From NCBI GenBank assembly GCA_964016885.1, contig OZ024747.1, forward strand, positions 25,420,001-25,484,000: a stretch of 64,000 bases of DNA, written 5' to 3'. The notes below the pieces were generated by a model that was not told the DNA's origin, did not search any database, and worked only from the letters and a program-made list of their open reading frames with translations. The stretch's first letter is position 1, and each line of letters opens with the position of its first letter. The stretch comes from Eledone cirrhosa. Lineage: Eukaryota. A program made the translations under genes and the position numbers. Positions 40,476-40,655 of the stretch are shown one piece after another.

Positions 40476-40556
40476 CTATCCGTTTGCTCACTAGTCCTAC
40501 TAAGTCCAGGGTAGTAGTAGTCTGCACGCTCTTCATGATCATATTTCTCATCATCC
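40476..40556 (-). CDS. Candidate 81-nt in-frame cassette exon within FERM F3
   Basis: ttgcttgcttgtag|G...GATAG|gtgaga; phase 2 to 2, matching the host intron; open frame (W)DDEKYDHEERADYYYPGLSRTSEQTD(R); unique non-repeat sequence. Confidence 0.6.
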
Positions 40557-40625
40557 CTACAAGCAAGCAAAGGATGGATGCATGCTAACAGTCTCCAGAA
40601 GGTTTAGCAAGTTAGAGTGGCATAC

Positions 40626-40655
40626 CAGTCGACATAAGTGACGGACGGACGAGGA
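40626..40655 (-). CDS. Candidate 30-nt microexon within FERM F3
   Basis: aaaatag|TCCTCG...GACTG|gtatgc; phase 2 to 2; (C)PRPSVTYVD(W); ctaactaac branch-point-like motif upstream; polypyrimidine tract is weak (CA-rich). Confidence 0.4.

Follow-up and report, generated by a model that had tools for sequence, protein, structure and literature searches.

An optional 81-nt exon in the FERM-coding part of an octopod PTPN4-type phosphatase gene, and a possible role in FERM docking

Gene structure and candidate units

Does a long intron of an octopod tyrosine phosphatase gene contain optional exons that alter the FERM domain of the enzyme and, if so, how many, and with what likely effect? The question arises from a 64,000 nt stretch of the Eledone cirrhosa genome (contig OZ024747.1; hereafter the window), for which an original prediction, made from the letters alone, proposed two tandem, cryptic, in-frame exons of 30 and 81 nt. 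The host gene lies on the minus strand, and its exons within the window (121, 88, 89, 81, 64, 161, 69 and 39 nt) join into a single open frame that matches isoform X1 of Octopus bimaculoides PTPN4. The coding exons show 89–100% match to an Octopus protein (P0005) and specify a Band 4.1-type FERM domain orthologous to that of PTPN3/4. The best PDB sequence match of the Octopus orthologue P0001 is human PTPN3 (E 4e-248), which, together with the exon matches, bears out the predicted PTPN4-type identity. The PDZ and catalytic PTP domains detected by Pfam in P0001 fall outside the range of the window for the Eledone gene.

The description of the island was also accurate. Both units are flanked by AG and GT, are stop-free and in phase 2-2, and have the coordinates and translations originally given; 69 nt separate them (Table 1). 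The host intron is 23,494 nt long and splits a Trp codon, and the island is unique sequence, with one match in the 3.0 Gb genome (in a search leaving out simple repeats). Frame and dinucleotides alone mean little, however, because the same intron contains 647 in-frame, stop-free AG..GT units of 9–150 nt, which served as the chance control.

Table 1. Features of the host intron and neighbouring exons (window coordinates)
Feature	Position	Strand	Remarks
Upstream constitutive exon, 89 nt	51446..51534	-	F3 strands beta2-beta4; its last two bases open the Trp codon
CA-rich intronic stretch with two CTAAC (40705, 40701)	40656..40705	-	
30-nt unit, probably intronic flank	40626..40655	-	Splice-site rank, contigs, AG missing in relatives
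Upstream intron flank of the 81-nt exon, conserved	40557..40625	-	CTAAC (branch A at about -56), GCATG (-29), TGCTTG twice (-13, -9), pyrimidine tract
Cassette exon, 81 nt, frame-preserving, phase 2-2, +27 residues	40476..40556	-	Junction contigs, Octopus isoforms
Downstream intron flank, conserved	40421..40475	-	Unspliced contig, organism B only
Downstream constitutive exon, 64 nt	27888..27951	-	F3 strand beta5, basic KRK loop, beta6
Next exon, 161 nt	26422..26582	-	beta7 and last F3 helix (modelled as H339-357), opposite wall of the peptide groove

The 81-nt unit is an optional exon

A small share of the island is contained in 21 RNA-type runs from seven organisms and one metagenome, and four of these were compared with nt 40420–40720 (X1, X2, X12 and X20, from organisms A, B, F and D, four different relatives). 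Their contigs are assemblies guessed to be of RNA and bear no tissue labels, so that they speak to presence and not to levels. All four runs have a contig piece spanning exactly 40475–40557, with four other letters, and in all four the loose ends match a junction from the 81-nt exon to the downstream exon (27951 end). Direct joining of the upstream exon (51446 end) to the 81-nt exon is matched by loose ends in three of the four. Two contigs of 2.1–2.2 kb pass unbranched through the exon. Comparison of the 12.9-kb downstream intron with four runs, X3 and X4 being compared at this intron alone, was dominated by repeats and gave no useful joint.

At the protein level, a search with the 81-nt translation gave one match among one candidate, XP_014770802.1. 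Among the listed members of the corresponding 26-member Octopus cluster, 10 of 15 isoforms carry the 27-residue insert and five skip it; both O. bimaculoides and O. sinensis have models of either kind, and the single O. vulgaris protein listed is of the skipping type. The RefSeq PTPN4 models of the first two species (XP_014770802.1 with the insert, XP_036361605.1 without) agree with the window in exon, site and length, although they are automatic models only. The insert peptide, for which the original prediction had suggested a search in other coleoids, is 24/27 identical between the window and the Octopus models; residues 10–27 are invariant, and the three changes stand beside two entirely unchanged flanking exons (30/30 and 22/22 residues identical to P0005 for the upstream and downstream exon, respectively). 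In the window both the skipping and the inclusion form keep an open frame. The second open frame that had been reported across the 81-nt unit is real, but it stops two codons into the next exon.

The splice sites point the same way. The 81-nt unit comes first of the 647 units when a simple score for splice sites is applied, and its acceptor is in the top 0.8% of the 1,964 AGs scored. Crude as it is, the score ranks each of the gene's eight exon acceptors among the top 0.6–5.9%. There is very little doubt that the 81-nt unit is a genuine alternative exon of the octopod PTPN4-type gene, and the conservation and alternative use that had been anticipated for it are seen in the junction contigs of relatives and in Octopus isoforms of both types. 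The label 'cryptic' does not fit, as the exon is already present in the automatic annotation of Octopus. This limits the surprise: the kind of event is ordinary and well known, and the exon is annotated but unstudied, literature searches (reaching few subscription journals) having found no publication on it or on the amphioxus insert described below.

Conserved flanks and putative regulation

The intron on either side of the exon is conserved, as judged from contigs of two organisms. Organisms A and B have unspliced contigs that depart from the window at 5/107 and 5/100 letters, respectively, over nt 40530–40636, exon part included, and over nt 40421–40496 an unspliced downstream contig, from organism B alone, differs at 3/76. 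For comparison, some 19 codons of the neighbouring coding exons carry three to four synonymous changes in relatives, as read by eye from the loose ends. Were all five differences to fall within the 80 intronic letters, the upstream flank would still be 94% identical; with three of them intronic, under an inferred exon/intron split, P = 0.001 against a divergence of 15%. A pattern scan of the metagenome contigs for the orthologous intron gave no match.

The three kinds of motif originally reported ahead of the acceptor are all present. CTAAY occurs five times in the 344 nt upstream of the exon (0.72 expected; none of 66 other windows reaches five). Within 13 nt of the AG there are two copies of TGCTTG, against 0.12 expected in 344 nt, and a single GCATG lies near the acceptor. 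We take CTAAY, TGC and GCATG to be sites of Quaking/SF1, SRRM-type proteins and Rbfox, respectively. The AG-free zone before the exon is 26 nt, within the range of 20–129 nt found for the other exons of the gene, and RNA folding predictions for the island show nothing unusual (z = 1.24). Going by sequence, the conserved flanking intron likely regulates the exon through the CTAAC, GCATG and UGC motifs. Inclusion is probably tissue-regulated, and the same motifs suggest, with somewhat better than even odds, that it is biased towards neural tissue.

The microexon label implied by the original prediction is nevertheless not supported. Usual microexon cut-offs are 27 or 51 nt. The 81-nt exon resembles eMIC/SRRM4-dependent microexons in its CUAAY branch motif and in having UGC close to the acceptor, but fly eMIC exons, whose median is 31 nt, have a very weak acceptor and a long AG-free zone (accessible text of PMC8797185), whereas the octopod exon has a strong acceptor, a short AG-free zone and long flanking introns (11–12.5 kb). 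Differing from them in length, acceptor strength and AG-free zone, it is best regarded as a cassette exon with some neural-type motifs. Mouse Ptpn4 has a different, 45-nt exon within its FERM-coding part that is listed as eMIC-sensitive (PMC8797185 table S2 row 447), so the mouse FERM domain would also be under neural splicing control, at another exon; the accessible supplement file has no row for fly Ptpmeg. As an orthologue of the octopod exon the mouse exon was rejected because, by size arithmetic, it follows exons of 43 and 79 nt and lies upstream of the Trp-codon intron. Five of the ten exon sizes behind this placement are assumed values.

Position of the insert in the FERM domain and a proposed mechanism

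The insert has 27 residues, of which nine are D/E, four K/R and four Tyr, giving a net charge of -5. It splits the sequence matches to PTPN3, 4.1R and DAL-1 directly after the Trp. Structure models, which agree with the FERM structures of DAL-1, 4.1R and FARP at TMt 0.89–0.94, place it between strands beta4 and beta5 of lobe F3, confirming the predicted location just before beta5. Strands E270-276 and E280-286 are separated by a three-residue link in the skip form. In the inclusion form, the modelling of which had been suggested along with the prediction, residues 278–302 are a coil with pLDDT <50 between E269-275 and E304-312, and the strands of the lobe are kept. The insert is accordingly predicted to be a flexible loop, with the proviso that low pLDDT is no proof of disorder or of contact and is to be expected here, because only one of 80 alignment rows carries the insert. 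Pfam gave no match on the insert, and neither a GXY nor an RxxTYxVxxA motif (both taken from the accessible parts of PMC3155308 and PMC6041286) occurs in it.

The neighbourhood of the loop is better characterized. Lobe F3 has a PH-like fold (PMC10901363, in part), in which beta5 and the last helix make a groove for receptor tails (PMC3155308, PMC6041286, in part). In FARP1, a KRKR motif of the beta5-beta6 loop is required for PI(4,5)P2 binding and membrane targeting; the basic patch is described as a subfamily feature, and the accessible text leaves PTPNs unmentioned (PMC6041286). At the equivalent place KRKQF is found in 114 of 119 PTPN4-like relatives. According to the accessible text of PMC8439436, human PTPN4 variants in the FERM domain do not reach dendritic spines.

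These data point to a splice switch as the most likely mechanism: the position of the groove and the KRK loop, the composition of the insert, and the mislocalization of PTPN4 FERM variants would all fit one that retunes docking. Inclusion would add a 27-residue acidic loop before beta5, probably in neural tissue. The loop might shield the basic KRK loop after beta5 by its charge or, alternatively, crowd the groove between beta5 and the last helix; in either case the FERM domain would dock less strongly or differently on membranes and receptor tails, and phosphorylation of Tyr residues in the loop could act as a further switch. The insert and the KRK loop stand at opposite ends of beta5, the insert before and the loop after it; contact between them is thus possible, no more. 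Taken as a whole, one 81-nt cassette exon with conserved regulatory flanks, encoding an acidic loop that retunes FERM docking, probably in neural cells, is the best explanation, with a probability of about 0.55. For the narrower proposition that the main effect of the exon is on FERM docking we would give even odds.

There are precedents for this kind of effect. The PTB domain of Numb, which shares the PH/PTB fold, has an insert encoded by an optional exon that alters lipid binding or membrane targeting. An optional microexon in the PH domain of cytohesin-1 likewise changes lipid binding or membrane targeting (PMC6314551, in part). In both of these proteins the effect has been measured, whereas the octopus insert is much longer and its effect is predicted. 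PTPN4 requires its FERM domain to reach synapses (PMC8439436, in part), so an optional loop beside the ligand strand would give octopus cells a direct means of sending a synaptic phosphatase elsewhere.

Evolution of the insertion site

The length of the protein at the insertion site is nearly fixed among relatives. It is unchanged in 118 of 119 close representatives, in 110 of 130 listed cluster members (eight have an insert and 12 do not cover the site), in 31 of 31 short relatives, in 80 of 97 further members (17 not covering) and in 81 of 150 distant representatives (two differ by one residue, 67 do not cover it). No diverged squid or cuttlefish insert was found among the 31 short relatives, a set in which no decapodiform was identified by name. 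The insert is likewise absent from the listed isoforms of bivalves, gastropods, a brachiopod, nemerteans, crinoids and arthropods; such absence is weak evidence, since up to 15 members were listed per cluster and annotation misses rare exons.

One exception is amphioxus. Branchiostoma PTPN4 (P0177–P0187) has an optional, Ser-rich insert of 14 residues after the same Trp, in eight isoforms from three species (B. floridae, B. belcheri and B. lanceolatum; 8 of 15 listed cluster members), and skip forms also occur in these species. On sequence comparison, an insert present in three species of amphioxus is located at the same residue as that of octopus, at a site otherwise fixed in length. Unlike the octopus insert it is neutral and without Tyr, and it is known from the protein level only; the two (27 vs 14 residues) share no sequence (local alignment score 10). 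It ends in Met, fitting a phase-2 junction, as does the final residue of the octopus insert. A gene model of Paralvinella palmiformis (P0039) has five extra residues at the same site, which also end in a residue that fits a phase-2 junction; as this model contains other odd extra residues, the insert may be a prediction error.

Mammalian PTPN3/4 genes presumably have exons of 121, 88 and 89 nt. The sizes of the flanking exons agree with those of mammalian PTPN3/4 (the 64-nt size being taken from a row of the PMC8797185 supplement, seen in part), and the Trp-splitting intron is therefore probably ancestral. Convergence of the octopus and amphioxus inserts at one old intron would be the simpler reading of the sequences; as an alternative to independent origin, there may have been an old, fast-changing exon that annotation has missed. 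Comparable cases are known. In the Fgfr IgIII hotspot, unrelated optional exons occupy the equivalent position of orthologues in different phyla (PMC5703972, in part), and many convergent neural exons, again unrelated exons at equivalent positions across phyla, have been described (bioRxiv 10.64898/2026.09.05.749416, in part). Compared with hotspots of the Fgfr type, the PTPN4 case has only two lineages and one doubtful gene model. PTPN4 does not appear in the accessible main text of either of these papers; the second covers octopus and amphioxus, and its supplements may list the pair of inserts.

A broader and distinctly speculative proposal is that the Trp-codon intron of PTPN3/4 is a recurrent hotspot: octopods, amphioxus and perhaps an annelid would each have gained a neural cassette exon of their own there, serving to gate FERM docking. 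In octopus this exon would supply an acidic lid, switchable by phosphotyrosine, next to the basic lipid-binding loop and the peptide groove. Masking of charge would not be a principle shared by the two lineages, because the amphioxus insert at the matching site is neutral and lacks Tyr. The two unrelated inserts nevertheless provide a two-lineage test of whether convergent exons serve one job.

Alternative roles of the exon

The exon might instead serve chiefly as a phosphotyrosine motif, its YYYP core being phosphorylated and then either recruiting a partner or being turned over by the catalytic domain of the same protein. The four Tyr residues do stand in an acidic context, the YYYP-bearing part is invariant between the window and the Octopus models, and the octopus protein has the WPDHG loop. 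PDB titles list PTPN3 with an Eps15 pTyr849 peptide, a P850V peptide and an H812F mutant, and in the PTPN3–Eps15 study pY-Pro is said to be a preferred substrate feature. On the other side, three residue changes indicate that the N-terminal third of the insert is not fixed, and the amphioxus insert has no Tyr. As the sole or chief role this is unlikely; it is, moreover, compatible with retuned docking and does not exclude it.

Less likely again is that the loop is merely tolerated, a lineage-limited exon whose sequence is kept by splicing signals and which has little effect on the protein. The insert was seen only in the Octopus cluster and the runs of relatives, with nothing similar in the other proteins examined, and changes in 3/27 of its residues contrast with none in the two flanking exons. 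Yet site length, which is unchanged in 118/119 close representatives, is within one residue in all 83 of the distant representatives that cover the site, and with a length so nearly fixed 27 extra residues would hardly be neutral. The exon has also kept its frame, its length and both its flanks, and the two long contigs (2.1–2.2 kb) run through it unbranched.

The 30-nt unit

The remaining alternatives concern the architecture of the island. In the original prediction the 30-nt unit was a second tandem exon, separated from the first by a 69-nt 'mini-intron' and possibly new in this species, and the pair would yield up to four variants of F3. In its favour, AG and GT are present and the frame is kept in the Eledone genome, and the available RNA contigs all come from relatives and none from Eledone itself. 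Two CTAAC motifs lie upstream (branch A at -43 and -47) in an AG-free zone of 58 nt, an arrangement that recalls fly eMIC exons, which combine CUAAY branch points with long AG-free zones and 3' splice sites of very low strength (PMC8797185, in part).

The transcripts and models of relatives argue strongly against it. Junctions by which the prediction could be checked had been named with it, and those joining 51446 to 40556 and 40476 to 27951 occur in the relatives' contigs, the former, with no unit between the upstream exon and the 81-nt exon, in three of the four runs; of the 30-nt unit no junction was found in the contigs of any of the four, and none of the 15 listed Octopus isoforms includes it. 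Its splice sites are poor. The unit ranks 180th of 647, its acceptor is beaten or matched by 79.6% of the 1,964 AGs, and the sequence ahead of that AG has neither a pyrimidine tract (two T in 20 nt) nor a UGC. The CTAAC of the supposed mini-intron is only 14 nt from its donor, too near to be a branch point in so short an intron. In organisms A and B, moreover, the 30 letters shown at this place (loose ends, read by eye) contain no AG and are 8 nt shorter, so that acceptor and frame of the unit would be broken there.

What is kept in A and B has the character of a flank. Their unspliced contigs cross the 69-nt stretch and then diverge, the 30-letter loose ends retaining (by eye) a CGTCAC motif and a CA-rich run, the part that adjoins nt 40656 in the window. 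The 30-nt unit is probably intron and not exon, and together with the 69-nt stretch it makes up conserved flanking sequence upstream of the 81-nt exon. One exon, not two, is very probably all that the island holds, and the tandem switch is correspondingly most doubtful.

Least probable of all, by a narrow step, is an additional use of the island as an internal first exon, or within a retained intron, from which short upstream ORFs or a protein without most of its FERM domain would result: an upstream-unspliced contig of X1 does extend past 40636 (depth 12.4, vs 16.7 for the downstream-spliced exon), X1 shows neither a downstream-intron contig nor an upstream-exon junction, and the ATG at 40635 is apparently kept in organisms A and B, but the end of this X1 contig is close to a repeat, a point at which contigs break, the X2 upstream and downstream-intron contigs (9.4 and 14.6) are minor relative to the spliced form (252) and of a kind that precursor RNA or DNA would give, and all seven ATGs in 40700–40476 are closed within 29 codons, none of them being in the main frame to the next exon.

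Other features of the window

The gene has a second optional exon in the window, of 39 nt (13 residues; nt 20559–20597, minus strand), just after the FERM-adjacent region and with an unusual donor, GTCTGC. It is included in 11 and skipped in four of the 15 listed Octopus isoforms, and isoforms of Haliotis, Lineus and scallop have unrelated extra residues at its place. Adjoining it is an AT-type microsatellite of about 1.4 kb (nt 18500–20000), where G+C falls to 9%.

A remnant at nt 33998–34430, presumably of a DNA-transposon transposase, gave no Pfam match on the ORF scanned. The intron upstream of the 81-nt exon carries a fragment of a non-LTR retroelement reverse transcriptase (nt 42545–43720, plus strand; Pfam RVT_1, E 2e-13), antisense to the gene and with a stop between two ORFs, which contains the second- and third-ranked in-frame units of the splice scan. 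A purine-rich minisatellite with a 46-bp unit (about 75 copies, 88% matches) occupies nt 55952–59598 and is also intronic.
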